Assembly (NCBI GenBank): GCA_934476455.1
Contig: CAKSNY010000001.1
Span: 23,673-87,672, forward strand
Origin: an uncultured Clostridia bacterium
Lineage (GTDB): Bacteria > Bacillota > Clostridia > UMGS1883
Length of the DNA stretch: 64,000 nucleotides
Direction: 5' to 3'
The notes under the pieces are model-generated. The model was not told the origin of the DNA and ran no database searches. It saw only the letters and a list, made by a program, of their open reading frames with translations. Of the stretch, positions 5,142-51,260 are shown in pieces. A program made the position numbers and the translations under genes. Position 1 is the first letter of the stretch, and every line of letters starts with the position of its first letter.

Positions 5142-5182
5142 AACACTGCAAGACGGCAAAGAAAATCGAACGGGAGGGAGAA

Positions 5183-7843: not shown

Positions 7844-7885
7844 AGGCGTATAAAATATAAACAGAGAGGCGGAAGCTAAAGAAAT

Positions 7886-9265: not shown

Positions 9266-9329
9266 CGCTTTACTATACAGCACAGTTAGCTTATATACAG
9301 CTTGTACGCATCACGGGAGGGATTTTGTA

Positions 9330-11672
9330 ATGAAAAAGTTAAAAAGTAAGGTATATGGGTATTTTACGGCACTGTTTGTTTTTTGCGGCATATGTGTGTG
9401 TGTTATGCAAAATACGGCGAATGCGGCGCAGGATTACGATACAGCCAAAAATCTTTTAACAGGCGCGCAGATTGTCCGCAAAAATGCCGCTACACCAAAC
9501 GTTGACGGAGAAACGGTTAAATGCGGTATGCTTATTTCCCCGGGTTCTTCAACGGAAACAACAGCCGCAAACGCCGTTATAATTGACGGAAGCCTGACAA
9601 ACACGTCTAATTATCACACAATAAGCAAAAGCGAGGGGAACAAAGCTTCCTTCAGAATTAAATTCAGCGACGAGAAGAATGTAAAGCAAGTGGTTATAAC
9701 CACGCGCAAACAAAGTGACGGTACGGGCTTGCTTGACGATACGGTTTTACCAAGCTTTGGATATTCTTTGCAAAATGACAGTTGGTGGAGCGGATCGTTT
9801 ACATCTGTGCAGGTGACGGTTTCCTCGTATACATACACAGCGGGCAGCGAGTTTAAGAGAACGGTTATAGATTTGCAGCAAGCGTGCAAAGGAAAGGATT
9901 TTCTTCTTGAAATCCCGCGCGAAACATCAATGAATATAAACGAAATTGAAGTTTATGAGGACGAAAACATAGGCGGGCCGCTTCCGATATGCACAATAGA
10001 CGATACTTCGGAGCCGTCCGTTAACGGAAGAAATTACAAGGAGCTGTCAGCCTCGGCAGAGATGAACAGTCTTGTAAATATTCCCGTTAAAAAGGTAGAA
10101 TTTTTTGATAAAGACGGCAGCTTTATAGGCGAGGGAATAAAAAACGAAAATGACGGAAAATATCATTTTACGTGGAAGAATCTTGAATTTGAAACAGTAT
10201 ATTTTGTAAAAGCGATTGCAACCGATATGTCGGGTGCAGCAAGCGAAAGCAGTGAGATTGAATTCGAGCTTCAGCCCTTGCCCGAATCGGAACTGGCTGA
10301 GGCGATACGTGCTTTTGATACGATTGCGGATACGACCGAGGTTTCGCAAACGCTTGAACGGTATTCGGAAATTCTTGAAAATATCGGGTACAATATTGAG
10401 GAACATAACGCGCTTAATCCGGAGAAAAAGACGTATTTTGAGAATGCTGTTGTAAATTTTAACACAAACGGCGTGTACACCGCGGCGGAATTTTACAGGT
10501 TTACAAATGCATTAAAAACCTTTAATAATATGGCGGACCTTGCCTTTTGCGAGGATGACAATATTCTTGAAATATTGAAAGAAAATAAAGCTTTTTATGC
10601 AGTTGACACGGATGACAAGTATTTTTTTAGCTTTGATGAAAACGAGCAAAAAACCGTGCTTTCGGGCTTAAAACAATTCTTGCTTGATATTCCAACCCTT
10701 GTACCTGACGGTTTGAATGTCAAATTTAAAGAAATCTGTGCGCTTCAAAGCTTCGGCAGTACATATTGGGGAGAGTACTATGATTGGATAAAACATTTTA
10801 ATATTTGTTTGATGATTGATCTTTCCGATTATGAAAATACGCTTACAGAGGCAGAACAGGTAAAGGTTATGCAGGAAATGGCACATTTTAAAAATGCCGT
10901 TTCCGCAGAAATGATAAAGGCGGAGTTTGAAAGACTGGTTCAAAACGCAATAGACAGCAGAACCGATGAAAACCCGACGCCGATTGTAGATGTTAAAAAG
11001 CCGAGTGGAGGCGGCGGTGCCAAGTCCCCGACAACGGTAAAAATTGTTTCGGATAATTCCCGCGAAATCGAAAACAAAAACGATGTTCCCTCGGAAGGTG
11101 ATGAAGGCGGGCTGCCGTTTAAAGATATATCCGATGCTCGGTGGGCAGAGGAAGCTATTACATACTTGTATAAAAACGAAATAATCTCGGGCGTGTCGGA
11201 AGATATGTTTGAACCGCAAAGAAGCGTAACGCGTGAGGAATTTGTTAAAATTCTGCTTGGCATACTCGGCATAAAGCCGCAAAAAAGTGCAGAATTGATT
11301 TTTGCGGATTCTTCCCCGGAGGCATGGTATAACGATTATATATCAACAGCCAAGGAGATGGGAATTATAAACGGCGTGTCGGAAAACGAATTTGGTGTCG
11401 GTCAGTTCATTAGAAGGCAGGATATGGCGCTTATGCTGTATAACGGGATTAAAGACAAAATACGCACGGACGCAGAAAAAATAAATGTTTATTTTAATGA
11501 TGAAGCAGACATTAACGAATATGCCCTGTCGGCAGTTAAAGCGTTAAGCACCGCCGGTCTTTTTGAAGGAAACGAAAACGGATGCTTTTTGCCGCATAAG
11601 AGTGCTGCAAGAGCTGAGGCGGCAAAGGTATTATATGAAGCGGCATTGTTAATGAAAAATACGGGGGATTGA
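9330..11672 (+). CDS. Cell-surface protein: signal peptide, discoidin-like N-terminal domain, helical middle region, Gly-rich linker, 3x C-terminal SLH domains
   Basis: The start was trimmed to the ATG after GGGAGGG, which gives a signal peptide (MKKLKSKVYGYFTALFVFCGICVCV). The N-terminus is paralogous to the 2355..4898 protein. PSGGGGAKSP linker. The C-terminal SLH motifs are WAEEAITYLYKNEIISG, AWYNDYISTAKEMGIING and ALSAVKALSTAGLFEG. Confidence 0.7.
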   Translation: MKKLKSKVYGYFTALFVFCGICVCVMQNTANAAQDYDTAKNLLTGAQIVRKNAATPNVDGETVKCGMLISPGSSTETTAANAVIIDGSLTNTSNYHTISKSEGNKASFRIKFSDEKNVKQVVITTRKQSDGTGLLDDTVLPSFGYSLQNDSWWSGSFTSVQVTVSSYTYTAGSEFKRTVIDLQQACKGKDFLLEIPRETSMNINEIEVYEDENIGGPLPICTIDDTSEPSVNGRNYKELSASAEMNSLVNIPVKKVEFFDKDGSFIGEGIKNENDGKYHFTWKNLEFETVYFVKAIATDMSGAASESSEIEFELQPLPESELAEAIRAFDTIADTTEVSQTLERYSEILENIGYNIEEHNALNPEKKTYFENAVVNFNTNGVYTAAEFYRFTNALKTFNNMADLAFCEDDNILEILKENKAFYAVDTDDKYFFSFDENEQKTVLSGLKQFLLDIPTLVPDGLNVKFKEICALQSFGSTYWGEYYDWIKHFNICLMIDLSDYENTLTEAEQVKVMQEMAHFKNAVSAEMIKAEFERLVQNAIDSRTDENPTPIVDVKKPSGGGGAKSPTTVKIVSDNSREIENKNDVPSEGDEGGLPFKDISDARWAEEAITYLYKNEIISGVSEDMFEPQRSVTREEFVKILLGILGIKPQKSAELIFADSSPEAWYNDYISTAKEMGIINGVSENEFGVGQFIRRQDMALMLYNGIKDKIRTDAEKINVYFNDEADINEYALSAVKALSTAGLFEGNENGCFLPHKSAARAEAAKVLYEAALLMKNTGD

Positions 11673-11677
11673 TTGTG

Positions 11678-14600
11678 ATGAGAAAATTTATATGCAGTAT
11701 ATTACTATTTGCAATGCTTTTACCTCAGGCTTCGGTTGCCGTGTATGCAGAAACCGTAAATATCGAAAACGTTGCAATCGGGAAAAAAATACTGACAGAT
11801 GTTCCCAAAAGCGATGCCGAAAGCAATACGGAGGCAATGGTTGACGGAAAAATAATGGTAAACGGAGCCGGTGAAACGCGTTGGTACGTAAGAAAGAACT
11901 GTGCCGACGCATGGTTTAATATTTACCTGGGAAATGAAACAAAGCTGTACTATGCAATGGTGTATTCCGGAGCAAACAGCTCTCCGGCAGGCATAATAAC
12001 GGATTTTAAGCTTCAGTATCGCACGTCAAACGGTTGGGAAGACATTGACGGGGCAGACATTTCCGGAAATGAAAAAATGAAGCTGAAGGTCACCTTTAAG
12101 CAGCCTGTAACAACGGACGCCGTAAGGTTTGTTTCAAAGACAGCTTCAGAGTTCAGAATAAGAGAATTTGAACTGTACGGTGAGGTTGACTCAGTCATAG
12201 CCGCGTCAAAAAATAAAGGAAATGAAGAAGGTTTTGGAATACAATTTCAAAGGGATGTTTCGTTTTTAAGCGCGCTCGGAGTGCTGGACGACAACGCAGT
12301 AATGGATGAAAACGAATTTATTACACGCGGAAGATTTGCAGATATTGCAATGCGTGCATTAGGATACAGAGAGCTTGTATTTACAGAACAGGACGGTATA
12401 TATGAGGATGTTGATACTCAAAACCCCTATTACCAAAGTATAATGAATGCAAGAAAGCTTAATGCAATAAGCGGTGAACAAAAATATTTTTATCCGAACA
12501 AAATTATAAATGAAAACGAAATGTTGAAAATCATTATGTGCCTGATGGGCTACTCCGAATACGCCGAAATGAACGGCGGATATCCGACAGGGTACATAAG
12601 GGCTGCACGTACGGCGGAGGTTGATATCGTTTATGCAAGTGATGCCGACAACAACATAACAAACGGCGAAGCTGTAAGGTTTATTTGCGAAACGTTTGAC
12701 GGATACCCTATGTGTGAGGACGAATACAATAACGGCACAGTAAAAAATGTATCGGACCGTTCGGTATTTGAAAATGTTTATAACGGAAAAAAGGGCGAGG
12801 GTGTTGTAGAAGCAAATGAGGTTACATATTTATACCAAAAAAACTCCCGAGCGGCAAAGGGCGAGGTTATCATAAACGGTGAGCGGTATAAAAACGGCGG
12901 CACGGACGCCGCAGAGCTTTTAGGATTTTACGTCGATTATTATTCTGTAGAAAAGCAGGGAACGGATACGCTTGTATATGTATGCCCCGACAAAAAAAGA
13001 AATTCCGTGCTGACGCTGACATCTGAGGATATAGTGCCCGAAAGCTCAGGCATAAGGCAAATATCCTACCGTGAAAACAATAAAACAAAAGAGGCGAAGC
13101 TGTCAGACGCGCCGTATATTTTAATAAACGGAAAATTTGACGGAAGCTTTACAAAGCAGGATTTGGATTCCGAGACATTGTATATTTTGCTTGTGGATTG
13201 GGATAATGACGATATTTACGATTTTGCAAGCATATATAAATTTGGTACCTTTATTGTCGGCGGTGTTGACGAAAATGCCAAACGAATAAGAAGCCGTGAC
13301 GGTGAAAAAGCTATAGATTTGCTTAACGACGGGGATGAGCTGTACTACACAATAAAAAAATCGGGGCAAAGCGTGCCAATCGGTATTATCAAGGAGGATG
13401 ACGTTGTTTGTGCGGCTCTGTCCTCCGACGGGCGCGCTGCACAAATATTGGTTTCGGGGCGAAAAATAAGCGGCACCGTGGAGGCAACCGACGATGACGG
13501 AAATGTTGTTATCGGCGGAAACGAATACCCGGTATACACGGGCGTTAAAATAAATCTTAACGACAGCGGAACCTTTTATATTGACTCATTCGGAAAGATT
13601 GCAGGTTATGATACAACTTTATCTGCGGAAAAATACGGTTTGGTTCTGAATATTGCGGAGGTGGGAAGTAGTGTAAAGCCATGCGTACAGATTAAACTGT
13701 TAGATGAAAGCGGAGCTGTACAAACATACAATGCGGCAAAGAAATATAAGTTAAACAAGCAGAGAGAGAAATCGGAAAATATTATCGGAAACCCCGCATT
13801 TTTTGACAGCGGAAGCGTGCGAAATGATTTAATTCGCTATAATCTTAACCAAGAAGGCGAGATTAACGAAATAATCACTGTTACAGACAGAAGCACTGAC
13901 GCCGATAAGAGCAGTAACAGAGATATTTTGTCGCTTGACGTTAAGCTTGGAAAGGTAAAGTACAAATCACAGCTTTTATCGGTTTCTGGAAAAAACACCT
14001 ATGCCATCGATATAAACAGACCTATATTTTTTACAACAACCGACAGCGATATCAAGGCTTTGCAAATTGAAGAAAGTGTTTATTCGGGAAAAGCTTCGGA
14101 ATATTTATCGGATTACACAACAATAAACGGAACGGTATCTTTGTATGATATTGACGAATACGGACTTCCGGGGGCAGTTGTGGTTTATGATTATTCGCCT
14201 ACAATGATACCTACAACAAATCAGATTGCGGTTGTAAAAAAAGCGCTTGGCGGAACAAATGAAAACGGCGAAAACACAAAATTTTTGAAGCTGTTTAAAG
14301 AGGGCGCAGAGCTGCAAATTGAATTGCCGCAGTCCGCAAAGGTAATTACATCACTTGCTGCCGCAAAAAGAGAGGGAATGAACACAACATATTTCGGTGA
14401 GTATTACGTTCCCGAGTACGCCGATTATAATGCGGATGATTTAAAAGCGGGAGATATAATTTTGTACTCGCAGCAGAAAGGCAAAATTACGTATTGGCAA
14501 TACGTGTATAAAAACGGTGACACTGTAAGCAGGGTTATTCAGCAGACAGGCGGCGACAGCGGATATTATGCAAATCTTGAAACCATGTTCGTCAGGTTAA

Positions 14601-14824
14601 AGCAGCTGACGGGCAGCGTTATCACGTTTGTTGACGGCGGAGGAACGGAGTATAGCTACCTAAACGATAAAATAAGGGTAACAGTGTACGATTCCATGCA
14701 GAAGGATGTGTATCAGGGAACGATTGATGATATTATAAATGAGGTAAATAACAGCCCGAACATAAATAATTTATTTGTCAGGACGCAGGTAAAGGCTGTT
14801 AAAGACATTGTAATTTATAAATAA
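11678..14824 (+). CDS. Large secreted SLH-domain protein (discoidin-like N-terminal domain, SLH repeats, ~800-aa uncharacterised region)
   Basis: A signal peptide and an F5/8-type-C-like domain (RWYVRKNCADAWFNIYLG ... IREFELYG) come first. SLH-like repeats follow (FLSALGVLDDNAVMD, YQSIMNARKLNAISG). The remainder is paralogous across its full length to the 36697..39366 and 44450..47077 proteins (GYSEYAEMNGGYPTGYIRAA versus GYREYVSVKYGKYPNGYISAA, plus a conserved C-terminus). Confidence 0.6.
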   Translation: MRKFICSILLFAMLLPQASVAVYAETVNIENVAIGKKILTDVPKSDAESNTEAMVDGKIMVNGAGETRWYVRKNCADAWFNIYLGNETKLYYAMVYSGANSSPAGIITDFKLQYRTSNGWEDIDGADISGNEKMKLKVTFKQPVTTDAVRFVSKTASEFRIREFELYGEVDSVIAASKNKGNEEGFGIQFQRDVSFLSALGVLDDNAVMDENEFITRGRFADIAMRALGYRELVFTEQDGIYEDVDTQNPYYQSIMNARKLNAISGEQKYFYPNKIINENEMLKIIMCLMGYSEYAEMNGGYPTGYIRAARTAEVDIVYASDADNNITNGEAVRFICETFDGYPMCEDEYNNGTVKNVSDRSVFENVYNGKKGEGVVEANEVTYLYQKNSRAAKGEVIINGERYKNGGTDAAELLGFYVDYYSVEKQGTDTLVYVCPDKKRNSVLTLTSEDIVPESSGIRQISYRENNKTKEAKLSDAPYILINGKFDGSFTKQDLDSETLYILLVDWDNDDIYDFASIYKFGTFIVGGVDENAKRIRSRDGEKAIDLLNDGDELYYTIKKSGQSVPIGIIKEDDVVCAALSSDGRAAQILVSGRKISGTVEATDDDGNVVIGGNEYPVYTGVKINLNDSGTFYIDSFGKIAGYDTTLSAEKYGLVLNIAEVGSSVKPCVQIKLLDESGAVQTYNAAKKYKLNKQREKSENIIGNPAFFDSGSVRNDLIRYNLNQEGEINEIITVTDRSTDADKSSNRDILSLDVKLGKVKYKSQLLSVSGKNTYAIDINRPIFFTTTDSDIKALQIEESVYSGKASEYLSDYTTINGTVSLYDIDEYGLPGAVVVYDYSPTMIPTTNQIAVVKKALGGTNENGENTKFLKLFKEGAELQIELPQSAKVITSLAAAKREGMNTTYFGEYYVPEYADYNADDLKAGDIILYSQQKGKITYWQYVYKNGDTVSRVIQQTGGDSGYYANLETMFVRLKQLTGSVITFVDGGGTEYSYLNDKIRVTVYDSMQKDVYQGTIDDIINEVNNSPNINNLFVRTQVKAVKDIVIYK

Positions 14825-14843
14825 ATGGATGTGGGGTAGTAAT

Positions 14844-16730: not shown

Positions 16731-18308
16731 ATGAAAAAAACATTTAAGAAAGGGGCAGGGCTGGCGCTTGCAGTTTTAATGGCAGTTACAGCCGCAGGAT
16801 GCGGCAAAAAAAACGGCGAAGCGATGAAGCCTGACACCGATGAGCGTCTTGACATTGATTTTATGATTTCGGGACAAGGAACAGACGACAGCCATTTTGT
16901 GCTGAAAAAGACGTTGGATGAAAAATTTAATATTAACGCAAATTTTCTTATAAGTGCGTCAAGCGCGCATATTGATAAGCTTAAAATACTTATAACCTCC
17001 GACAGCCTTCCGGATATTGTGTCGCCGTTTCCGAACGATTTGGCAAAAAACTGCGGACCGCGCGGGGCTTTGGTTCCGCTTTCGGATTACCTTGACAAAA
17101 TGCCCAACTACAAAAAGTATTTAACGTCAAACGCTGAATCCTATGCTTCGCAAATGGCAAATGACGATAAGGTTTATGTTGCGGCACTGTACAGAGAGCA
17201 AAGCGATTGCAGATATGTTCCCATATTGCGGCGCGATTTGTTCGAGGAGCAGGGCATCGAAATTCCCAAAACATATAACGAGCTTTATACGGCACTCAAA
17301 AAAATAAAAGAAAAGCATCCCGAAATCATAGGCCTTGTTAATAAAGTACAAATGGCTTGCCTGTCGGATTACGGTATGAATTTTAATACAAGCAGCGAAA
17401 TGTTTTACAACAAAGAAAATGATAAATGGGAATACGGTCCGGTAAATAAGGGTTTTAAAGAAATGCTGACGTTCTTTAATAACCTTTGGAAAGAAGGCTT
17501 GATGGATCCCGAGTTCTTTACGGCTTCAACAAAGCAATGGGAGGAAAAAATCCTTTCAGGAAAAGCTGTATTTACATTGGGTTGGGTCAATGATTCGTAT
17601 GATTATAAGAAAACATATCTCGAGCTTCACCCGAATTCAAAATTTGACCTGTCTTTGACAGAGCCGATGACAACAGAATCGTATGATGTACCTGTTATAC
17701 AAACATCCGCACAAATTAACGATTACTGCGCGTACGGAATTTCGGCAAAATCTCCTGCGGCGGCACGTTTGTTAAAGGTTGTTGACTTTATGTATTCCGA
17801 CGAAGGCTCTACGCTTGCTCAATACGGTGTAGAGGGGAAGAACTTTACAACAACGGAAGACGGAAAAAAGAAGTATGCAGAGGATATTATGTGGGGATAT
17901 AATCCGAAAGGAACACATAATCCGCTGACTTATTACGGGCTGCGTTCCGACCATTTAATGCGTGTTGTGAAAGCGCAGGATTATGAAAAATATGCCGACA
18001 TTGAAATGGACGCTATCAATATGCGCCAAAAATATTGGGATAATAACTGGGGATACACTTCAAATAACGGTATAAAGCTGACATTTACAGAGGATCAGCA
18101 GGCAGAAATTGATAAAATAAAGAACAATTTAAGCACAATGGTAAATGAAGAAAGCATTAAGTTCATCGTGGGTGAAAGACCGATGTCGGAATTTGATTCC
18201 TTTATTGCACAGCTTGAAAAGCTTAATTACAAAAAGCTTGAGAATATATATTCGGAAGCATTCAAGCAGTATAAGGATCGTATTAAAATGATTAAGCTTT
18301 ATGACTAA
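16731..18308 (+). CDS. Extracellular solute-binding lipoprotein (family 1, LplA-like) of the sugar ABC transporter
   Basis: Signal peptide with lipobox (LMAVTAAGCGKK), ~520 aa, typical size and composition of Firmicute polysaccharide binding proteins. It is adjacent to the two permeases. Confidence 0.8.
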   Translation: MKKTFKKGAGLALAVLMAVTAAGCGKKNGEAMKPDTDERLDIDFMISGQGTDDSHFVLKKTLDEKFNINANFLISASSAHIDKLKILITSDSLPDIVSPFPNDLAKNCGPRGALVPLSDYLDKMPNYKKYLTSNAESYASQMANDDKVYVAALYREQSDCRYVPILRRDLFEEQGIEIPKTYNELYTALKKIKEKHPEIIGLVNKVQMACLSDYGMNFNTSSEMFYNKENDKWEYGPVNKGFKEMLTFFNNLWKEGLMDPEFFTASTKQWEEKILSGKAVFTLGWVNDSYDYKKTYLELHPNSKFDLSLTEPMTTESYDVPVIQTSAQINDYCAYGISAKSPAAARLLKVVDFMYSDEGSTLAQYGVEGKNFTTTEDGKKKYAEDIMWGYNPKGTHNPLTYYGLRSDHLMRVVKAQDYEKYADIEMDAINMRQKYWDNNWGYTSNNGIKLTFTEDQQAEIDKIKNNLSTMVNEESIKFIVGERPMSEFDSFIAQLEKLNYKKLENIYSEAFKQYKDRIKMIKLYD

Positions 18309-20301
18309 AAGCGGGAAAAATAAGGCTATGATAAGGGCTTTCCTTGTATCGATGCTTTCGGGAATATGTATATTAGCTTGCGGAGGCGTACACCACGCCT
18401 CCGCAGCTGACTATGAGTATGATAAAAATTTATTAAAGGATGCAACGGTTTTCGGTGACGGTATTGTAGAGGGTGAGGTGCGCTTGCCCGTTGTTACGCT
18501 GATTAACGGAGCGCCGGCAAATACACGATTATGCGAAGAAATTATTGTAGACGGAAATCTGTTTAATTCGGAGGATACTCCCAAATTCGGAACAAGCAGC
18601 AGCAATACCGACGGGGCAATAAGAATTAAGCTTAATAAAGCGGAAACTGTATCTGTTTTTGTTTTAACAACGCGCAAAGACAAAAACGGTTATGGAATTA
18701 TTACAGAGCCGGAAAAGCTTACGTTCGGGTACGGCAATAAAATAGGCGGCTACGGGTTAAACGGGTTTGCTGAAAGAAATATAACGGTAAAATCGCATAT
18801 GTACGGCAACTGGCAAAGAATTACACTGACGCTTGATACCCCTGTCACAGCCGAGGATATCTTAATCGGAGGTATAAAACGCGACCACGATATAAATATT
18901 GTGGAAACAGAGCTGTACAAGGCGGGAAGCGAGGGAAGCGTTTTTTCGTCGGTTTCCGTTGCGGCGCCAAGAAACGGAAAAACGTTTTCTGCCGGAACGA
19001 AAAAAATACGTGTTTGCGTAAGTGCATACGACGCTATCGGAGCTAAAATTAAAAGCGTGGATTTTTTCGGTGCAGACGGTCGGCTAACAGGCAATGCCGA
19101 ATACAATCCGAAAAACGAAATGTTTGAATATATAATGCGTGTTTCGGCGGGAAATTACGAAATATACGCAAGTGCTGCGGGAGAAAACAATATTAAATAT
19201 TTAACGGAAAAGATAAGCTTTTCTGTAGAATATGATGTAAAAATACGGGCAGACGGAAAAGCCCGCTTCAGCCCGAATGAGAGCGTAACCCTGACGGCGG
19301 CAGTGCAGGACAGATACAATACCGTTGCAAAGGTAAGCTTTGAGCATAACGGCGAAATGACGCGGAAAGTAACAGATTACTATGAACATAACGGATATAA
19401 ATATTATTCATTGACATTGAAAAATGATGATTGCCGTGCCGGGGGCTATATACCGTATGCGTATGACAGCTCTAATAATTTGATATGCGAAGCGCAATCG
19501 GTTTTTTATTATATTAAAGGGTACAGCAATGTTGCGTTTTCAAAAAACGTATCTGCCGTATATGAAGACAGAACTGAAGTAACCGACAGTATTAACAGCC
19601 GCGTTTCATCGCTCACCGACGGAAGAATTGACGCCTATGAAGGGAAAAACAGCTTTACGGCGTATACAACCGAAGGTGAGAGCATAATTTTTGAAATAAA
19701 CCTTGAAAATATTTTTGAAATTTCGGATATAATGATTTTTTGCGGTGAAACCGACAAAACAAAAATTGATAACCTGATCGGTATTGTTGATAATGCGGAG
19801 GTTTATTACCTTGAAGGAACGCAGTGGAAAAAAATAAGTGAGGTAACGGACAACAAAATCGGAAATTTAATCATACGTTTCACCAAAGCCGTAAGTACGG
19901 ATTTACTTAGAATAAAGGTTAGTGCGAAAAAGCAATTTACAATAAGAGAGGTAATGGTATTTTCACCGCTCCCCATAAGTATGGAGGTGTCGTCCGACAA
20001 CGAAAAATGCGATATCACTGTTATTAACAGCGGTATATTTGATGAAAAATGCAGTGTAATTATTTCAAAATACCGCGAAGGCAAGCTTTACGATGTCGGT
20101 ATAAATAATATTTTCGTTCGTTCGGCTTCACTTCTTAGCTCAACGTCGCAATGGGGAAATGACGCTTGCCTTGTTCCGGGTGAATACAGGATAAAAATTA
20201 CAAGAGAAGAATATGACTGCCTTAAAATATATGTTCTGAGAGATATTGAAACCTTAAAACCGATTGTTAAATCTCAAACGATAGTTTTCAAAGTATATTA
20301 A
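18301..20301 (+). CDS. Secreted protein with N-terminal discoidin-like domain (paralog of 2355/9330 N-termini), Ig-like repeats and a second C-terminal discoidin-like domain
   Basis: A signal peptide is present. The N-terminal module (DYEYDKNLLKDA ... GAIRIKLN ... VLTTRK ... VETELYK) is homologous to the other locus-1 discoidin modules. The C-terminal LLRIKVSAKKQFTIREVMVF has the F5/8 type C-like pattern. Confidence 0.55.
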   Translation: MTKSGKNKAMIRAFLVSMLSGICILACGGVHHASAADYEYDKNLLKDATVFGDGIVEGEVRLPVVTLINGAPANTRLCEEIIVDGNLFNSEDTPKFGTSSSNTDGAIRIKLNKAETVSVFVLTTRKDKNGYGIITEPEKLTFGYGNKIGGYGLNGFAERNITVKSHMYGNWQRITLTLDTPVTAEDILIGGIKRDHDINIVETELYKAGSEGSVFSSVSVAAPRNGKTFSAGTKKIRVCVSAYDAIGAKIKSVDFFGADGRLTGNAEYNPKNEMFEYIMRVSAGNYEIYASAAGENNIKYLTEKISFSVEYDVKIRADGKARFSPNESVTLTAAVQDRYNTVAKVSFEHNGEMTRKVTDYYEHNGYKYYSLTLKNDDCRAGGYIPYAYDSSNNLICEAQSVFYYIKGYSNVAFSKNVSAVYEDRTEVTDSINSRVSSLTDGRIDAYEGKNSFTAYTTEGESIIFEINLENIFEISDIMIFCGETDKTKIDNLIGIVDNAEVYYLEGTQWKKISEVTDNKIGNLIIRFTKAVSTDLLRIKVSAKKQFTIREVMVFSPLPISMEVSSDNEKCDITVINSGIFDEKCSVIISKYREGKLYDVGINNIFVRSASLLSSTSQWGNDACLVPGEYRIKITREEYDCLKIYVLRDIETLKPIVKSQTIVFKVY

Positions 20302-20314: not shown

Positions 20315-22804
20315 GTGAAAAAACATATGCTAAACGGCTTGTGGAAGGCGAGAGGATGTTCGCCGGAGGGAGATATAATTGAGTTTGACGCATCAGTTCC
20401 GGGATGTGTGCATACGGATTTAATAAAAAATAAAAAAATAGAAAATCCTTTGTTGTCGGACAATTCTTTAAAATGCCGTTGGATAGAAAGGTGGACGTGG
20501 ATATACGAAAGAGCTTTTACAATGAACAGCATACCGAAAAAATGCTTTATAGAGTTTGAAATGCTGGATGTATACTGCGATATATACCTAAACGGAAAAA
20601 AACTTGGATTTTGCGACGATATGTTTTACCCGCATATGTTTGATGTTTCCGACATTTTGGTTGAGGGTGAGAACAACATCAGGGTAATATTTTATTCTCC
20701 GGTATTGCTTGCCGAAAACAAGCCGAGGTTAAATGGTGCTTTTACGCGGGAGCGAATGTATACAAGAAGAATACAGTGTACCTACGGCTGGGATTGGGTA
20801 GACAGGTTTGTTACATCGGGAATTTGCGGAAATGTTGCAATAGTAATACCTGCAAGCTGTGAAACAGACGATATTTATGTTCAGACAGTCAGTATTGACA
20901 AATACAGCGCACAGGTGAAATTAGAAATTAAATTTTCTGGAGAATTTGACGGATGCTTTGGCGTTGTTGAAATTTTTTCTCCTGACAAAACCTTAATTTT
21001 TCATCGCAGAGTGCCGATAGCCGAAGAAAACGTGGCATTTACAGTTGATATAGAAAACCCAAAGCTGTGGTATCCTATAGGCTACGGGAAGCCAAATCTT
21101 TACAAAACGGCGGTAGCCGTGGAAACCGAAAACGGGAAAACCGTATCCTTTGCAGAAACGTCTTTCGGAATAAGAAAAATCAAGGTTTTGCAATCAGAGG
21201 ACGAAAAGGGAAGCAGCAACCATAAAAAATGCATGGAGCTGAAAAAAATATCTTATCTTTCGGGAAAATGTGAAAAAAATGATATGAATACACACTACTT
21301 TGGTTTTATTGTAATTGTCAACGATATTCCCGTAATGTGCAAGGGCGCAAATTGGGTTCCGTGCGAACCGTTTGTTTCGGAAGAAACCGAAGAAAAAATA
21401 AGTGCATTGTTAAAGCTTTCACACGATGCCGGGATGAATTTAATACGTGTTTGGGGCGGCGGCATTTTTGAAAGGGAGCATTTTTATAATGAATGTGACA
21501 GACTTGGAATAATGGTATGTCAGGATTTTCTTATGGCATGCGGAAGCTACCCCGAAAACGATGCGAAATTTTGCGAAAATATGAAAAAAGAGGCAGAATA
21601 TATAACTGTCAGACTGCGAAATCATCCAAGCCTTATTTGGTGGTCGGGCGATAACGAAAATGCAGCAGACAGCAGTGACAATATGACAAAATATCCGGGG
21701 CGGTACATTGTAAGAAAAATTATCGAACCGATTGTAAGAAAAAACGACTCGGGACGGTATTTTTTCCCTTCAAGTCCGTTCGGCGGTATTCCTTACGGGT
21801 CGGTAACGGCAGGCACAACGCATAACACAAAATTTCTTATTCCTAAATTTAAATATTTTATGGAAACCGATATGAGGGACTATCAACAAAGATTTTCGGA
21901 GGGATTGTCAAGATTTGGTGTTGAGGAGCCAATACTCGGAGCACCGTCGCTGTGCACGGTCGAAAAATTTATTACGGGAAAAAAGCTTGATAATAACAGC
22001 GAAGAAATATGGCGTTTTCACACAAAGAATAACGGTGACGCATTTAAAACATTTGAAATATATGACTGTATGATTGAAGGAGCACGGAAGCTTTTCGGCA
22101 AATTTACGGGGGTTTCGGATAAGCTTTTAAAAATGCAGTATCTTCAATACGAGTGGGTTAGGATATCAATGGAAAGCTACAGACGGAACAAATGGTTTTC
22201 ATCGGGAATACTTTACTGGATGTTAAACGATTGCTGGCCGGCATTCGGGTGGGCGTTAATTGATTACAACTGCATTCCGAAAGCGGGATGGTATGCCTTT
22301 AAGCGTTCCGCAAAGGGCGTAATCGCATCAATTTCCGAAAAAGACAATTATCTGCAAATACATATATGTAACGACAGTGCAGAGCCGAAAAAGGGGCAGC
22401 TTAAAATTTATCGTGTGAAAGATGATGTGAAAAAAGTTTCTGAGCTTGACTTTACACAGAAAGCAAACACATCGGAAATTGTATATAAGCTTGGTATTAC
22501 CGAGGATGATAAAAATGACGTATGGATTTGTGACGTAAACGGCAAAAGCATAAATGACAGAGCAATGTGGTTTTCCGCACGACCGCAGGACATTAAGTTT
22601 AAAAAGCCTAAAATCAGCATTTTGCGACAAACGGATGACAGCATCACCCTTGCAGCAAAAACATATGTGCATGCTGTCAGGCTTGAGGCGGAGGCTGTGT
22701 TTGACGACAATTATTTTACAATGCTTCCCGGCGAAGAAAGGACAATACATTTTAAAACCCAAGCAGACGAATGTACCGTAAAGGTAGATGCGTTGTATGT
22801 GTGA
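20315..22804 (+). CDS. GH2 family glycoside hydrolase, beta-mannosidase-like (intracellular)
   Basis: The N-terminus (VPGCVHTDLIKNKKIENP ... WIERWTWIYERAFT) matches the beta-mannosidase GH2 pattern. WWSGDNEN is a TIM-barrel motif. Size fits at 829 aa and there is no signal peptide. Confidence 0.7.
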   Translation: MKKHMLNGLWKARGCSPEGDIIEFDASVPGCVHTDLIKNKKIENPLLSDNSLKCRWIERWTWIYERAFTMNSIPKKCFIEFEMLDVYCDIYLNGKKLGFCDDMFYPHMFDVSDILVEGENNIRVIFYSPVLLAENKPRLNGAFTRERMYTRRIQCTYGWDWVDRFVTSGICGNVAIVIPASCETDDIYVQTVSIDKYSAQVKLEIKFSGEFDGCFGVVEIFSPDKTLIFHRRVPIAEENVAFTVDIENPKLWYPIGYGKPNLYKTAVAVETENGKTVSFAETSFGIRKIKVLQSEDEKGSSNHKKCMELKKISYLSGKCEKNDMNTHYFGFIVIVNDIPVMCKGANWVPCEPFVSEETEEKISALLKLSHDAGMNLIRVWGGGIFEREHFYNECDRLGIMVCQDFLMACGSYPENDAKFCENMKKEAEYITVRLRNHPSLIWWSGDNENAADSSDNMTKYPGRYIVRKIIEPIVRKNDSGRYFFPSSPFGGIPYGSVTAGTTHNTKFLIPKFKYFMETDMRDYQQRFSEGLSRFGVEEPILGAPSLCTVEKFITGKKLDNNSEEIWRFHTKNNGDAFKTFEIYDCMIEGARKLFGKFTGVSDKLLKMQYLQYEWVRISMESYRRNKWFSSGILYWMLNDCWPAFGWALIDYNCIPKAGWYAFKRSAKGVIASISEKDNYLQIHICNDSAEPKKGQLKIYRVKDDVKKVSELDFTQKANTSEIVYKLGITEDDKNDVWICDVNGKSINDRAMWFSARPQDIKFKKPKISILRQTDDSITLAAKTYVHAVRLEAEAVFDDNYFTMLPGEERTIHFKTQADECTVKVDALYV

Positions 22805-22837
22805 GATAAAAAACAGGAAAAATGAGGTGCTTAATAT

Positions 22838-24850
22838 ATGTGGTTTAAAAACAGCTTTCGCAGGCATTTATGTGATATGCATATAGATGATTGGAATGAA
22901 GAATTTTTGTCGAAATTTTCGCCTGAGGAATATTTGGAAAATCTAAAAAAAGCAAAAGTTAATAATGCTATGCTTTATTTTCAGTCACATGTCGGGCTTT
23001 GTTATTATCCGACCAAATCGGGGAAAATACATAATGCATTTGTCGGACGTGAGGATATGATGAAGCGGCTTGCACATATGTGCCGAAAAAACAACATAGC
23101 AGTAACAGGGTATTACAGCCTTGTATATAACAATTGGGCGTACAATGCACATCCGGAGTGGAGGATACGTTCAGACGAGGACGAAATAAAGCTTGATTTT
23201 GCATCTGAAAAAGTAAGCCGTTACGGTCGGTGCTGTCCCAACAATCCCGGATATAGGAGGTTTGTGTCAGTGCAGCTGAAAGAAATAGCCGATTATTTTG
23301 AATTTGACGGTATGTTTTTTGATATGCTTTTTTGGCCGAAGCTTTGTGTGTGTGAATACTGCCGCGCACGTTTTAAAAACGAAACGGGCTGCGACCTTCC
23401 CAAAGCCGTGGACGAATGGGACAACCCCATGTGGCTGTTGCATCTTCGGAAACGCCGCGAATGGATGGGAGATTTTGCACAATCGGTATCGGATGAAATG
23501 AAAAGCTATGCACCGGGAATAAGCGTTGAGCATAATGTCGCAAATGCGGTTGTGCCGCAGCCCAAGCTTGCATGTGCGGAGGAAGTAATAAATGCGTGTG
23601 ATTATGCCGGCGGCGATCTTTACGGAGGTTTGCTCAGACAATCATTTGCGTGCAAATTCTACAGAAATATAACTAAAAATCAACCGTTTGAATATATGTT
23701 TTCGCGCTGCGAACCAAATCTTACAAAACATACCGTTACGAAATCACTTGCGGCAACCGAAAGTTCGAATTTTCTTACGTTAGCACACCATGGGGCTACG
23801 CTTGTTATAGATGCAATAGATCCTGTGGGAACACTTGATAAACGTGTATATGAAAGAGTGGGAGCAGCGTTTGAAAAATCAATCCCGTATGAAAAATATA
23901 TTAAGGGAGAAATGATAGAGGATGTTGGTATATACTACACCCTTAAAAGCAAATTTAATGCGCATGGAGAACAATACACCAATTTCACTGGCGCAACAAA
24001 CACTGTTAAACTGATGATAAACAATAATATATGCTGTGGTGTTACCGGCGGGTATCACGATATAAATACGTACAACCTCTTGATTGCGCCTTGCCTTACA
24101 GAGGAGGATAGGTACGATTACGACAGAATTGAAACCTATGTTCAAAACGGAGGAAATTTGTATATAAGCGGCGGTGATTGTTTAGGACTTATAAAAAAGT
24201 TTTTTGGTGCAGAAATTACCAAAAGAACGCGGGAGACTGTGGTTTACATAGCGCCAACTGCCAGGGCTGAAAAGTCATTCGGATGGTTTAACGGTGATTA
24301 TCCGCTGCATTTTGACGCAGCCGCACCGGTTGCAAAAGGAATTGACACGGAATGTGTGCTTGCAGCGCTCACGCTTCCGTATACACCGCAGGATACAGAC
24401 AAATTTGCTTCAATACATTCAAATCCGCCGGGGATAAAGACGGATATTCCCGCAGTTGCATTAAAAAAATACGGAAAGGGAAAAGTGCTTTGGTCTGCCC
24501 TTCCAATTGAAAGCATGGAAAAACCGTACCAATATGGGAAAGTTTTTTTGTCTTTATTACGCGAATTTTTAGACTTGGAGCAAACAATATCTTCAAGCGC
24601 GCCGCAGGATGTTGAAATAGTAGCATTTAAAGACGAAGGCGAAATAACGGTTTCATCCGTACAACTGTGCGAGGGCGAGGCGGCGCACAAGGTAGAAATG
24701 TTTGATATATCTGTAAAGACTGATAAAATGCCGAAAAGGGTTTTGAAACTTCCTAATGAAACGGAATGTAAATTTAAATATGAGAACGGAACGATTACGC
24801 TGAAAACAGATGATTTAAACATATTCGATATGAAGAAAATAATACTATAA
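22838..24850 (+). CDS. Putative glycoside hydrolase (GHL6-like TIM-barrel N-terminal domain + beta-galactosidase-trimerisation/GATase1-like domain)
   Basis: The N-terminal region HLCDMHIDDW ... NAMLYFQSHVG ... MFFDMLFWP resembles hypothetical-glycosyl-hydrolase-6 type proteins. The middle region ETYVQNGGNLYISGGDCLG is a GH42-domain-2-like fold. The assignment rests on recalled family features only. Confidence 0.4.
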   Translation: MWFKNSFRRHLCDMHIDDWNEEFLSKFSPEEYLENLKKAKVNNAMLYFQSHVGLCYYPTKSGKIHNAFVGREDMMKRLAHMCRKNNIAVTGYYSLVYNNWAYNAHPEWRIRSDEDEIKLDFASEKVSRYGRCCPNNPGYRRFVSVQLKEIADYFEFDGMFFDMLFWPKLCVCEYCRARFKNETGCDLPKAVDEWDNPMWLLHLRKRREWMGDFAQSVSDEMKSYAPGISVEHNVANAVVPQPKLACAEEVINACDYAGGDLYGGLLRQSFACKFYRNITKNQPFEYMFSRCEPNLTKHTVTKSLAATESSNFLTLAHHGATLVIDAIDPVGTLDKRVYERVGAAFEKSIPYEKYIKGEMIEDVGIYYTLKSKFNAHGEQYTNFTGATNTVKLMINNNICCGVTGGYHDINTYNLLIAPCLTEEDRYDYDRIETYVQNGGNLYISGGDCLGLIKKFFGAEITKRTRETVVYIAPTARAEKSFGWFNGDYPLHFDAAAPVAKGIDTECVLAALTLPYTPQDTDKFASIHSNPPGIKTDIPAVALKKYGKGKVLWSALPIESMEKPYQYGKVFLSLLREFLDLEQTISSSAPQDVEIVAFKDEGEITVSSVQLCEGEAAHKVEMFDISVKTDKMPKRVLKLPNETECKFKYENGTITLKTDDLNIFDMKKIIL

Positions 24851-24868
24851 AAGGGAGGAAGAATTTTT

Positions 24869-26068
24869 ATGTCAACAGCAAAAAAATTACTTGAAGAGGG
24901 CGGCGGTATATACCGCCTTGCACCCACATGGGTGCCGAGGGCGTTTTGCCGCCCGGCAAAAAGAATAAAACTGCATCCCGACGACTATTACGTTTTGGGA
25001 CAGCAAAGAGGAGGAATCGATGAAAGATGGTTTTCATCAACAACACACGCAGATAACGGACCGCAAACGCCTGAGGACGAGGGTCTTAGCTACATAGTGT
25101 CAAAGGACGGCAGCGAAAAGGTTTTGCTGCGTGATGCGGTTAAGGAGCTTGGCGCAGAGGTCGTAGGTGAAAGCATATGGAACAAATATCATAAATGGCC
25201 TATGTTTTCAAAATTCTTTGATAACCTCGGACCGCTTCCGCATCATATACATCACCGCGAGCAGCACGCAAGGCGTGTGGGCGAGGCAGGAAAGCCCGAG
25301 ATGTATTTTTTTCCGTCACAGGTAAATAACTATGAGGGTGAATTCGGATATACGTTTTTCGGATTGAAGCCCGAAACCACAAAGGAACAGGTTAAAAAAT
25401 GCCTTGAGAACTTTACCAAGGGCGACAACCACCTTCTTGACCTGTCGCAGGCGTATAAAATAACGCTTGATACAGGCTGGGACGTTCCTCCGGGGGTGCT
25501 GCACGCTCCGGCAAGCCTCTGCACCTATGAGCCGCAGTTTGCAAGCGACGTATACGCTATGTATCAATCGGTTTTATACGGCGGACACTGTGTTTCGGAG
25601 GATTTGCTGTGGAAAAACTGCCCCGAGGAGGAAATAGGCAATTTCGACTATCTTGTAGAGGTAATAGACTGGGATAAGAACGTAGACCCGAAATTCAGCG
25701 AAAACAGGTTTATGGCGCCAAAGGTAACAGCACAAAACGATGACTACACAGAGGAATGGATTTGCTATAGGTGCGAAACCGTTTGCGCGAAAAGGCTTAC
25801 GGTAAACCCGGGAAAGACTGCCGTTATAAAGGATAAAGCCGCATACGGAATGATTCTTTTACAGGGTAAAGGAAAAATGGGTGCCTGGGATATAGAAACA
25901 CCTACGCTTATACGCTACGGCGAGCTTACAAATGACGAGTTTTTTGTTACTGAAAAAGCTGCAAACGGCGGGGTTAAGATTATAAACACGTCAAAAACGG
26001 AGCCCATTGTAATGCTTAAGCATTTTGCGGAAAACCCCGAGCTTTCCGAGGTGCTGTGCAATGAATAA
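24869..26068 (+). CDS. Cupin-fold sugar isomerase, phosphomannose-isomerase type I-like
   Basis: KRIKLHPDDYYV matches the conserved IKVHPDD motif of type I PMI (such as B. subtilis ManA). His/Glu-rich metal-binding candidates (HHIHHREQH) are present. The architecture is atypical because the motif sits close to the N-terminus. Confidence 0.45.
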   Translation: MSTAKKLLEEGGGIYRLAPTWVPRAFCRPAKRIKLHPDDYYVLGQQRGGIDERWFSSTTHADNGPQTPEDEGLSYIVSKDGSEKVLLRDAVKELGAEVVGESIWNKYHKWPMFSKFFDNLGPLPHHIHHREQHARRVGEAGKPEMYFFPSQVNNYEGEFGYTFFGLKPETTKEQVKKCLENFTKGDNHLLDLSQAYKITLDTGWDVPPGVLHAPASLCTYEPQFASDVYAMYQSVLYGGHCVSEDLLWKNCPEEEIGNFDYLVEVIDWDKNVDPKFSENRFMAPKVTAQNDDYTEEWICYRCETVCAKRLTVNPGKTAVIKDKAAYGMILLQGKGKMGAWDIETPTLIRYGELTNDEFFVTEKAANGGVKIINTSKTEPIVMLKHFAENPELSEVLCNE

Positions 26069-27026
26069 ATATATAGGGCATCCCTCACAGCTGTGCGGCG
26101 TGCGGGAGATGCGCCTTACGGGCGGAAAGGCGGACGGTATGCGTGTGCTTGAGGTATACAATGCGTCAAAGCTGAGATTTACCGTTTCGCTTGACCGCGG
26201 CGGAGATATACCGTATTTGTTTTTCAGTTCAAAGTCAATGGCATATATCGCCCCGTGCGGTATGGTTTCACCGCAGTTTTACGATAAAGAGGGGACAGGC
26301 TTTTTAAAATCGTTTACGGCGGGATTTCTTACAACCTGCGGGCTTACCGCAGCGGGGAATCCGTGCAGCGATAACGGAGAGCAGCTGCCGCTTCACGGTA
26401 CGGTTTCGCATACGCCGTGTGAAAAGCATTCGTATGATATTGATGATGAAAATATAACCGTAAAGATAAAGGTGCGTGATGCGTCTTTGTTTTCACATAA
26501 GCTTATGCTTGAGAGAACGTATATCTGCGGTGTAAACCGCGACAGACTTGTAATAAAGGATAAAATATCAAATATCGGCAGTGAGGAAACACCGTATATG
26601 ATTTTATATCATTGTAATTTCGGCTATCCGCTGCTTTGCGAAAATGCTGTATTGGAAATAAACTCAAGCAAAATAACGCCGAGAAATGAGCACGCAAAAA
26701 AAGATTTAGGGGCGTGGAACAAGCTTGTAAAACCACAAAAGGGGTTTGTTGAACAGTGCTACTATCACGAATTTACTAAAAAGCCGCATATATCTCTTAC
26801 AAATTCCGAGATAGGCGTAAAAATGACAATGACATATTCAAAAGAAAGCCTGAACTGCTTTACACAGTGGAAAATGCTTGGCGAGTACGAATATGTGACA
26901 GGACTTGAACCGGGAAATTGCCTTCCCGACGGGCGGGATATTATGCGGAAAAAGGGTATGCTGAAATTTTTGCAGCCGGCTATGTCGGCGGAAAATCGAT
27001 TGTGTTTTGAATTTGAGAATATATAG
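26061..27026 (+). CDS. Aldose 1-epimerase (galactose mutarotase)-like family protein
   Basis: About 320 aa with a beta-sandwich-like composition and an LPLHGTVSH motif reminiscent of the mutarotase-family HG motif. Its ATG overlaps the upstream stop (ATGAATAA), so the two genes are translationally coupled. Confidence 0.35.
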   Translation: MNKYIGHPSQLCGVREMRLTGGKADGMRVLEVYNASKLRFTVSLDRGGDIPYLFFSSKSMAYIAPCGMVSPQFYDKEGTGFLKSFTAGFLTTCGLTAAGNPCSDNGEQLPLHGTVSHTPCEKHSYDIDDENITVKIKVRDASLFSHKLMLERTYICGVNRDRLVIKDKISNIGSEETPYMILYHCNFGYPLLCENAVLEINSSKITPRNEHAKKDLGAWNKLVKPQKGFVEQCYYHEFTKKPHISLTNSEIGVKMTMTYSKESLNCFTQWKMLGEYEYVTGLEPGNCLPDGRDIMRKKGMLKFLQPAMSAENRLCFEFENI

Positions 27027-27087
27027 AGCCTATAAAAAGGTTGGGATGAAATTTATTATTTCGTTCCAACCTTTTTATAGGCTCTAT
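27023..27087 (+). terminator. Perfect 22-bp inverted repeat (atagagcctataaaaaggttgg / ccaacctttttataggctctat) starting at the stop codon of the upstream gene; likely terminator or protein-binding palindrome
   Basis: Read directly from the sequence. The arms are 27023..27044 and 27066..27087 with a 21-nt loop. It marks the end of locus 1. Confidence 0.5.
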
Positions 27088-27201: not shown

Positions 27202-27230
27202 TTGAAATATTGTAATTATGGGATTAAAAT
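27202..27230 (+). promoter_or_regulatory. Candidate sigma-A promoter (TTGAAA - 17 bp - TAAAAT) upstream of locus 2
   Basis: Hexamers with a 17-bp spacing ~60 bp upstream of the 27293 start codon. Confidence 0.3.
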
Positions 27231-27292
27231 TATTTTGTAAGTGCCATATAGATGCGGCACTGAAAAGAAAGCAATTATTGAGGAGGATTATT

Positions 27293-28768: not shown

Positions 28769-28804
28769 AAACATTGACATTACGACCGATGTGTTGAGAG
28801 GGGA

Positions 28805-51250: not shown

Positions 51251-51260
51251 AATGGAGGAA

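Follow-up and report, generated by a model that had tools for sequence, protein, structure and literature searches.

In a 64,000-nucleotide stretch of DNA from an uncultured Clostridia bacterium (GenBank assembly GCA_934476455.1, contig CAKSNY010000001.1, positions 23,673 to 87,672 of the forward strand), to which we refer throughout as the window, we examined four adjacent genes that an earlier note, made from the nucleotide sequence, had interpreted as an enzyme set directed at an unusual mannoside. The window has a GC content of ~40% and carries several same-strand polysaccharide utilization loci. The four genes, all on the plus strand and confirmed as open reading frames (ORFs), encode, in this order, an exo-glycosidase of the beta-mannosidase clade of glycoside hydrolase (GH) family 2 (20315..22804), a three-domain glycosidase related to family GH151 that matches the Pfam family GHL6 (22838..24850), a cupin of 399 amino acids (aa) with the fold of type I phosphomannose isomerases (PMIs; 24869..26068), and a mutarotase-like protein of the DUF4432 family (26061..27026, in an ORF open from 26025). 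No signal peptide was detected in any of the four enzymes (4/4 checked), and their genes are the 3' end of a roughly 18 kb operon of the ATP-binding cassette (ABC) transporter type for oligosaccharide uptake. Each of the two glycosidases adds a new member to a family already known, and the cupin stands for a branch of PMI-fold proteins that is new and has no annotation, and in which the class of substrate probably has changed. The conserved unit is the cupin gene together with a DUF4432 gene, a GH151-like gene or both; the beta-mannosidase is an occasional neighbor of this unit.

A cupin with the predicted fold of type I phosphomannose isomerases

The cupin is labelled "hypothetical" in every source checked, and none of the Pfam and NCBIfam models, those for PMI included, matched it at E <=0.01. 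A literature search that covered DUF4432, PF14486, GHL6, PMI-like cupins, and L-xylulose or 3-keto-sugar routes with a cupin yielded nothing on this cupin family. As a single sequence, the cupin matches the PMIs in the PDB at E values of about 1, and the profile of its family reaches 1zx5 at 8.8e-7, the Salmonella PMI at 1e-4 and the B. subtilis PMI at 7.5e-4. The AlphaFold2 (AF2) model has a predicted local distance difference test score (pLDDT) of 95 and a predicted template-modelling (TM) score (pTM) of 0.93; in a Foldseek search of the PDB, the top 17 matches to this model are type I PMIs only (TM scores 0.54-0.78, E values 3e-18 to 2e-14), with bicupins other than PMIs matching at TM scores of about 0.35 only. 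On the strength of the model, we are confident that the cupin adopts the three-domain fold of type I PMIs. The PMI-type-I-like character that the earlier note had ascribed to this protein is thus borne out by profile and fold. By contrast, the supposedly atypical, N-terminal position of its motif is not: the HxH motif occupies positions 126-128 of the 399 residues and pairs with the Q-V-H of the 393-residue Salmonella PMI. In particular, HMMER aligns "...SKlFD" and "HlH" of the cupin with "...FKVLC" and "QVH" in the N-terminal half of the Salmonella enzyme. The family is large: more than 8000 database clusters were matched, of which the best 120 are 78-97% identical to the query, and 1575 representatives are left at 50% identity.

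The residues K115, H126, H128, K142, E144, Y146, H212, E221 and Q223 are invariant in 23 diverse cupins of this family. Among these, H126, H128, E144 and H212 are the predicted metal ligands, and K115, K142 and E221 are predicted catalytic-type residues. Compared with the type I PMIs (ManA; Salmonella 3H1M and 3H1Y, B. subtilis 1QWR, C. albicans 1PMI, and A. fulgidus AF0035, 1ZX5), the cupin is alike in fold at only 12-16% identity, its metal site is placed as in PMI (H126/H128/E144/H212 versus Q97/H99/E134/H255) although it has HxH where PMI has QxH, and it keeps equivalents of the PMI residues K86, K132 and E264 along with the K-P-E motif. Residue by residue, from this alignment and the motif spacing, we take K115 to correspond to K86, H126/H128 to Q97/H99, K142-P-E144 to K132-P-E134, H212 to H255 and E221 to E264 (the spacing of nine residues between the latter two is alike), and S226-D227, at +14/15 from H212, to the S-D of the second PMI signature. 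Gln97 and His99 are zinc ligands of the Salmonella enzyme, in agreement with the presence of entries for H99 mutants among the fold matches. A canonical PMI for direct alignment with the cupin was not found in 1.6 Mb of the loci collected. Given that the PMI fold, the metal site, and the lysine and glutamate residues are shared, aldose-ketose isomerization via a cis-enediol is the natural mechanistic model for the cupin.

The phosphate-binding stretch of PMI, R-A-G-x-T-P-K, is replaced in the cupin. Position 231 (H212+19), which, from the motif spacing and the PROSITE signature PS00966, we take to be that of the phosphate-clamp arginine of the Salmonella PMI (R274), is occupied by M, V, I, L or F in 23/23 cupins, and T-P-K is missing. 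This arginine of PMI has been studied as the R274A mutant in PDB entry 5ZVR. Judging from the motif spacing, the phosphate-binding arginine apparently was lost in the cupin.

The partner enzymes

The fourth protein is mutarotase-like, as had been surmised: it matches the Pfam family DUF4432 at 2e-86, with an overlapping weak match to Aldose_epim (9.5e-7), and the structural-genomics "hypothetical aldose 1-epimerase" 3TY1 from Klebsiella at 1e-27. H112, H184 and E283, located in the motifs LHG, YHxNFG and LEPG, are retained in at least 95% of 35 DUF4432 sequences; this His/His/Glu pattern is that of the catalytic residues of mutarotases (aldose 1-epimerases, GalM family). No published activity was found in the literature search for any DUF4432 member.

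The assignment of the second glycosidase to GHL6 stands (Pfam GHL6 6e-18, followed by Alpha_L_fucos at 1.6e-7 and Glyco_hydro_42M at 2e-5), whereas the accompanying description as a TIM barrel of no characterized activity is not borne out in view of a full-length homolog, ALfuk2, the GH151 alpha-L-fucosidase of Paenibacillus thiaminolyticus (6TVK). The single sequence matches 6TVK at 1.5e-13 over its first 180 residues only, and a profile of 16 members of its subfamily does so with an E value of 1.8e-47, positions 7-665 of the 667 in the profile being aligned with chain residues 31-685. Both proteins consist of a TIM barrel, a GH42M-like domain and a beta-sandwich, and a CxCxxC cysteine cluster is common to ALfuk2 and the subfamily, in which it belongs to an invariant group of four cysteines (C...CxCxxC; C133, C170, C172 and C175) that is reminiscent of the zinc site with a structural role in GH42 beta-galactosidases. 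The nucleophile of ALfuk2 is D154 (PMC10154630), and its acid/base is E235, complemented by His503. Aligned with this nucleophile (D183 in the chain numbering of 6TVK, an offset of 29) is the invariant D162, the putative nucleophile of the window protein; the invariant H527 of the SIH527SxPP loop lies within one residue of the position of His503, and the residue aligned with E235 is not conserved in the subfamily. The characterized GH151 enzymes are active on aryl-fucosides and fucosyl disaccharides, and inactive on the larger fucosylated oligosaccharides that were tried (PMC10154630). By homology, the GHL6 protein is a distant, putative GH151-type enzyme and a relative of alpha-L-fucosidases. 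Unlike ALfuk2, its subfamily is characteristically paired with the cupin.

The GH2 enzyme (start at GTG 20315 or at ATG 20327, the latter being used in the gene call of the source contig) shows a five-domain architecture that includes the mannosidase-type Ig domain (Pfam Glyco_hydro_2_N2 1e-41, Glyco_hydro_2, a weak Glyco_hydro_2_C, and Ig_mannosidase 3e-12). Its best relatives in the PDB, at 3e-111 to 7e-55, are all beta-mannosidases, among them DtMan (5N6U; 3e-111), BtMan2A (2JE8; 4e-78), XacMan2A (6BYC; 1e-76) and CapGH2b (9NFE; 1e-74), with which it shares the domain architecture and the WDW, RxWGGG, NE (acid/base), RFxxE and WxLNDxWP motifs. An exo-glucosaminidase is matched at 1e-15, and beta-galactosidases and glucuronidases at 5e-11 or weaker; accordingly, the grouping with the latter two that had been named as refuting the mannoside reading was not seen, and the reading as an intracellular beta-mannosidase-like enzyme is upheld by the closest solved relatives as well as by the missing signal peptide. 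In an alignment of 14 members of the subfamily, N447-E448, with the acid/base E448, and the nucleophile E537 are invariant; E537 belongs to the RFxxE motif and matches RFMSE in BtMan2A and RFISE in DtMan. The arginine that a pairwise HMMER alignment placed in the position of this nucleophilic glutamate is an artefact of a four-residue misplacement, the 14-sequence alignment showing E537. On this evidence, the protein belongs with the beta-mannosidases (EC 3.2.1.25), its activity being predicted. Unlike DtMan and BtMan2A, which have tryptophans in the corresponding positions (VWQDF and HNW), the 14 members have Cys, Thr, Ser or Ile at C402 and an invariant threonine at T505. The subfamily is rich in cysteines. 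CapGH2b is a demonstrated GH2 beta-mannosidase with a disulfide redox switch (PMC12770490). In view of this switch, the tryptophan replacements and the richness in cysteines, redox control or an altered specificity of the window enzyme is worth considering. In other genomes, the genes of this subfamily stand alone or near genes for GH78, GH106, GH88 and GH20 enzymes, sulfatases, and lyase-like proteins, and in the contexts examined, neither mannanase or mannan genes nor a consistent partner was found.

Gene neighborhoods of the cupin in other genomes

A scan for the cupin in one genome per GTDB species yielded at least 598 loci, 80 of which were examined with flanks of about 7 kb, the neighboring ORFs being clustered and annotated. 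These 80 loci come from Clostridia, Bacteroidota, Balneolaceae, Planctomycetota, Verrucomicrobiota, Lentisphaerota and Spirochaetota, and their cupins are 59-88% identical to that of the window. Adjacent to the cupin are a DUF4432 gene (36 loci), a ribose-type monosaccharide ABC importer (20), a GH151-like gene (17) or an FGGY family kinase (9); at least one of DUF4432 and the GH151-like gene is found beside the cupin in 51/80 loci. By contrast, a GH2 gene of the window subfamily is found within about 7 kb of the cupin in none of the 80, and there is no ROK family kinase, mannanase or phosphotransferase system (PTS) among the recurrent neighbor families. The surface proteins of the window, likewise, are shared by none of these loci, except for one match of 19% identity in L018. 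The genomic partners of the cupin are drawn from mutarotases, free-sugar importers and ketose kinases, not from mannose kinases or GDP-mannose genes.

Three settings recur. The first, in 30/80 loci, mostly from Bacteroidota but also from Planctomycetota and Balneolaceae, has the order SusC/D, a cytochrome-c protein of ~900 aa, DUF1080, DUF4432, cupin, a xylose-isomerase-like TIM barrel, and an oxidoreductase of the Gfo/Idh/MocA family, often followed by the ribose-type ABC importer and with ThuA proteins often close by; the oxidoreductase is closest to levoglucosan dehydrogenase, at 341 bits and so under the 650-bit cut-off. The second setting, seen in gut Clostridia, Lentisphaerota and Verrucomicrobiota (17 loci, to which several metagenomic contigs can be added), places the GH151-like gene immediately beside the cupin, in either order, and a PocR-AraC regulator is present in 10/17 loci. 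In many gut Clostridia, this setting comes down to the PocR-AraC regulator, the GH151-like gene and the cupin among housekeeping genes, with gaps of 18-50 nucleotides (nt) between the latter two and no transporter or kinase alongside.

The third setting, from Lachnospiraceae, Christensenella and spirochaetes, combines a ribose-type ABC importer, a FucU-like mutarotase, DUF4432, one or two cupins, an FGGY kinase, an L-ribulose-5-phosphate (L-Ru5P) 3-epimerase and an L-Ru5P 4-epimerase. The kinase is XylB/LsrK-like and under all NCBIfam equivalog cut-offs, and both epimerases are over the NCBIfam subfamily cut-offs; no kinase or epimerase gene of this kind is present in the window. These clusters are laid out like the fuc operon of E. 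coli (FucU, FucI, FucK, FucA) and its L-lyxose/yiaK-S route (LyxK, SgbU and SgbE), which leads from L-xylulose 5-phosphate to D-xylulose 5-phosphate, except that the isomerase slot is occupied by the PMI-fold cupin, often as two paralogs, in place of FucI or RhaA. Five clusters, from Christensenella, Blautia, Hespellia and Robinsoniella (L031, L030, L032, L035 and L036), have two cupin paralogs each, of which type 1, the type found in the window, adjoins the gene for the binding protein and type 2 adjoins DUF4432 and the FGGY kinase. The two paralogs are about 46% identical, and none of the key residues has been lost from either of them, suggesting that they serve a pair of related substrates or two steps in sequence.

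The closest relatives of the window cupin are from metagenome-assembled genomes of Clostridia, Oscillospiraceae and Ruminococcaceae, mostly in ruminant and human gut samples. In the closest relative among the 80 loci (88% identity), the module is not in an operon like that of the window but next to homologs of the TrkA/TrkH genes that the window has at 55952-58759, and therefore the module has moved between genomes. The sole other association of the GH2 subfamily with the cupin was found in L099 (JGI 3300032167 contig, 2317-10324), where a GH2 gene of the same subfamily (43% identity) lies near a GH151-like gene and a cupin (83% identical). The arrangement differs from that in the window: the GH2 gene is divergently oriented next to a unit of PocR-AraC regulator, GH151-like gene and cupin, after which comes a BNR sialidase-like gene. 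GH78 and GH106 rhamnosidases recur both near the module and near the GH2 subfamily.

Two further observations concern the cupin family. In human and animal gut contigs (L006:11188-11544 and L101:9188-9544), a 118-aa gene of the ASRT family (PF07100) begins exactly at the cupin stop codon and looks translationally coupled to the cupin. A relative encoded on an Arthrobacter plasmid (L095, NZ_CP084551.1, 27538-28743) and likewise labelled hypothetical ends a locus that resembles those for erythritol or threitol catabolism, with DUF2291, a ribose-type ABC importer, a dihydroxyacetone-kinase family protein, RpiB and a triosephosphate isomerase (TPI) family protein; at 32% identity, it is too distant for transfer of function, and the cupin superfamily at large may extend to the metabolism of tetroses or polyols.

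The operon and other loci of the window

Upstream of the four enzyme genes, the locus (locus 1) comprises, all on the plus strand, an AraC family regulator at its head (7886..9265; Pfam HTH_18 2e-19 and HTH_AraC), which is a candidate regulator only; an SLH-anchored secreted surface protein (9171..11672; three SLH repeats, 9e-28, and a signal-peptide-like N-terminus), whose true start probably is internal, at MKKLKSK...; a secreted surface protein of 1051 aa (11669..14824) with an F5/8-type-C lectin module (Pfam F5_F8_type_C 7e-11), an SLH-like region and beta-rich domains; two ABC permeases of the oligosaccharide-uptake type (14829-15791 and 15820-16701; Pfam BPD_transp_1, 1e-14 and 8e-11); an ABC extracellular solute-binding lipoprotein (16731..18308; Pfam SBP_bac_1 5.6e-13, lipoprotein-type N-terminus); and a 666-aa probable lipoprotein (18301..20301), in which Pfam detects Big_7 and, weakly, F5/8-type-C domains and which has an ILAC lipobox-like motif. 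For the three extracellular proteins encoded here, which would define the polymer used, no catalytic fold was recognized by PDB sequence searches or, for the 1051-aa protein, by AF2 and Foldseek. In particular, the SLH surface protein has PDB sequence matches to its SLH part only, and neither the 666-aa nor the 1051-aa protein has any PDB sequence match. For the 1051-aa protein, only 9 homologs were found among 5.8 billion database proteins; its AF2 model has a pLDDT of 64 and matches, in Foldseek, only SLH and F5/8-type-C fucose-lectin-like modules.

From the solute-binding protein gene onward, the intergenic gaps are -8 to 33 nt, and the gene of the 666-aa lipoprotein overlaps that of the solute-binding protein by 8 nt. 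The translational coupling noted previously for the last two genes is evident in the overlap ATGAATAA at 26061-26068, where the cupin ends with ...AAT GAA TAA and the DUF4432 ORF has its ATG at 26061; the independent gene call of the source contig places the DUF4432 start at the same ATG. Directly 3' of the DUF4432 stop codon is a perfect 30-bp stem-loop (27023..27087; minimum free energy -45.1 kcal/mol, z = -11.4 versus shuffles) at which the transcription unit likely ends; a U-tract is missing, and the scan for consensus terminators made no call there, the consensus scans for promoters and terminators having performed no better than on shuffled sequence. Metagenome contigs in ENA hold an identical cupin gene, one of them being a 171-kb scaffold with matching gene order.

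Across the window, a Pfam scan of candidate coding ORFs with a length of 180 aa or more recovered GH28-like, GH2, GHL6, GH31, GH88 and GH36 proteins and, in keeping with the earlier reading, no GH5, GH26, GH113 or GH130. Three loci of the window each encode one large surface protein that includes SLH regions (11669-14824, 36697-39366 and 44450-47077); these paralogs are 20-23% identical, no catalytic fold was recognized in them, and they may be locus-specific glycan-binding or novel depolymerizing proteins. The next locus (27218-31450) opens with two secreted proteins of 516 and 881 aa, for which the only family match is a weak one of the first protein to a GH85 C-terminal domain (E 2.8e-4). 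Farther on, at 49850-52157, a FucI-C-domain protein with a weak likeness to SftI (111 bits, cut-off 700) precedes a D-psicose 3-epimerase equivalog (384 bits, cut-off 300), and a GH36 alpha-galactosidase gene comes next. This is a second rare-sugar isomerase/epimerase pair in the window, unrelated to the cupin module. It is this FucI-like protein (49850-51250) that the NCBIfam model for sulfoquinovose isomerase (SftI) matches, weakly, instead of the cupin, for which such a role was considered and rejected.

Proposed function of the cupin module

With about even confidence, we propose that this part of the operon combines two trimming glycosidases with a portable DUF4432/cupin module for a free sugar and does not constitute a branch through mannose 6-phosphate. 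Under this proposal, the two exo-glycosidases, of the GH2 and GH151 types, would trim the imported oligosaccharide, and the sugar used by the cupin would, in this genome, be released by the GH151-like enzyme. The DUF4432 protein would then interconvert the anomers of the free, unphosphorylated sugar, and the cupin, with its metal bound by His/His/Glu/His and a PMI-like enediol mechanism, would convert the aldose into the ketose, which would be phosphorylated by a kinase encoded elsewhere. From the observed folds, conserved residues, gene order and co-occurrence, we infer the isomerase chemistry, the unphosphorylated nature of the substrate, and the passage of the sugar from the GH151-like enzyme via DUF4432 to the cupin. 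Across the family, the sugar would either enter the cell as such through an importer or be set free in the cytoplasm by the GH151-like glycosidase. An isomerase of free aldoses fits the retention of the PMI machinery together with the apparent loss of the phosphate clamp, the mutarotase partner, the monosaccharide importers, the ketose kinases and the missing mannose-specific genes. Moreover, the nearby importers, FucU-like mutarotase, FGGY kinases and L-Ru5P epimerases suggest isomerization first and phosphorylation second, unlike in a mannose 6-phosphate isomerase, and the module, being mostly found without the beta-mannosidase, probably handles a free sugar other than mannose.

In an alternative along the lines of the earlier note, the cupin would be a divergent but true mannose 6-phosphate isomerase and DUF4432 a mutarotase for mannose or mannose 6-phosphate, so that mannose released by the GH2 enzyme from a short beta-mannoside, such as Man-beta-1,4-GlcNAc (GlcNAc, N-acetylglucosamine), mannobiose or an N-glycan core, would be phosphorylated elsewhere and enter glycolysis. 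The PMI fold and catalytic residues of the cupin, the beta-mannosidase-clade GH2 gene in the same operon, the recurrence of that subfamily by the module in L099, and one distant cupin relative that adjoins a gene of the ROK family, which includes sugar kinases, all speak for this possibility, which we nevertheless consider unlikely: this GH2 subfamily accompanies the cupin in 0/80 loci, ROK kinase, mannanase and PTS genes are not among its recurrent neighbors, the phosphate-binding Arg/TPK motif is missing, the PMI models of Pfam and NCBIfam all fail at E 0.01, and the actual partners are free-monosaccharide importers, FGGY ketose kinases and pentulose-phosphate epimerases. The beta-mannoside oligosaccharide proposed in the earlier note thus is a fair target for the GH2 enzyme, and it is that enzyme alone that indicates a mannoside; the other three genes, belonging to a separate portable module, are not evidence of mannose. 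Since the enzyme is cytoplasmic and known mannanase families were not found in the window, its substrate can fairly be read as a short beta-mannoside that is imported, and not as plant mannan. Several weak hints would agree with a glycan that carries both fucose and beta-mannose, an N-glycan core for instance, namely, the GH151-like partner, the sialidase-like neighbor in L099, the weak GH85_C match in the next locus and the fucose-lectin-like modules of the surface protein.

Two other possibilities place the cupin outside of simple monosaccharide isomerization. The conserved order of DUF4432, cupin, TIM barrel and Gfo/Idh/MocA in the 30 mostly Bacteroidota loci, the frequent proximity of DUF1080 (3-keto-disaccharide hydrolase), ThuA and cytochrome-c proteins, and the affinity of the oxidoreductase to levoglucosan dehydrogenase (341 bits, below the cut-off of 650) would fit an oxidative 3-keto-sugar route, in which the levoglucosan-dehydrogenase-like oxidoreductase and a TIM-barrel eliminase would make a 3-keto or enol sugar that the cupin and DUF4432 tautomerize, hydrate or isomerize, with the GH151-like enzyme as an alternative supplier of the precursor. 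However, these oxidoreductase and TIM-barrel partners are missing in the window and in most Clostridia loci, the kinase-epimerase clusters of Firmicutes and spirochaetes resemble a classical isomerase-kinase pathway, and the literature search found no link between PMI-fold proteins and such routes, so we give this explanation little credence. Alternatively, the cupin could act on the reducing end of a di- or oligosaccharide, as cellobiose 2-epimerase does in mannan catabolism, before cleavage by the GH151-like or GH2 enzyme. The tight GH151-like/cupin pairs without transporter or kinase in many Clostridia are consistent with this order of events, as is the preference of characterized GH151 enzymes for disaccharides (PMC10154630); it is quite improbable all the same, as the cupin is linked, where no glycosidase is present, to FGGY kinases and to ribose-type ABC importers (20/80), which typically carry monosaccharides, and a mutarotase partner suits free sugars equally.

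Several observations weigh against the free-sugar isomerase that we favor. The isomerase activity is a prediction from fold, residues and gene context, and the apparent loss of the phosphate clamp is deduced from motif spacing and the PMI signature only. Some mutarotase-fold enzymes act on sugar phosphates, glucose-6-phosphate 1-epimerase being an example. Downstream routes differ with the context, with L-xylulose-5-phosphate epimerases in some Firmicutes as opposed to the dehydrogenase and TIM barrel in 30/80 loci, none of which (0/30) has an FGGY kinase within the 7-kb flanks, so the cupin family may not be isofunctional, or its chemistry may be no simple aldose-ketose shift. Finally, in view of L099, the module and the beta-mannosidase may be functionally tied in this lineage. 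As for the identity of the sugar, we suggest, only tentatively, an L-configured aldose, either of the L-fucose/L-xylose type or of the L-rhamnose/L-lyxose type, on the grounds of the homology to GH151, the FucU-like partner and the epimerases for L-pentulose phosphates. With somewhat less reserve, although still short of an even chance, we envisage that the cupin founds a cross-phylum family of PMI-fold isomerases of free sugars, which, together with DUF4432 and often a GH151-like enzyme, would constitute a new route by which a sugar, possibly an L-configured aldose, enters central metabolism, with the family as a non-orthologous replacement of isomerases of the FucI/RhaA type.

Implications

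Thousands of cupins of this family are spread over gut Clostridia, Bacteroidota of soil and water, Planctomycetota, Verrucomicrobiota, Lentisphaerota and Spirochaetota, and identity of about 60% across six or more phyla suggests a strongly constrained metabolic enzyme. For annotation, the lesson is that a PMI-like fold beside a beta-mannosidase does not by itself imply mannose metabolism. If the cupin is indeed an isomerase of free sugars, this would provide the first functions for DUF4432 and for this GH151-like subfamily. Identification of the cupin substrate would give DUF4432 a function, could also point to the natural role of GH151-type enzymes, and would fill a gap in the reconstructions of sugar catabolism in many uncultured gut and environmental bacteria.

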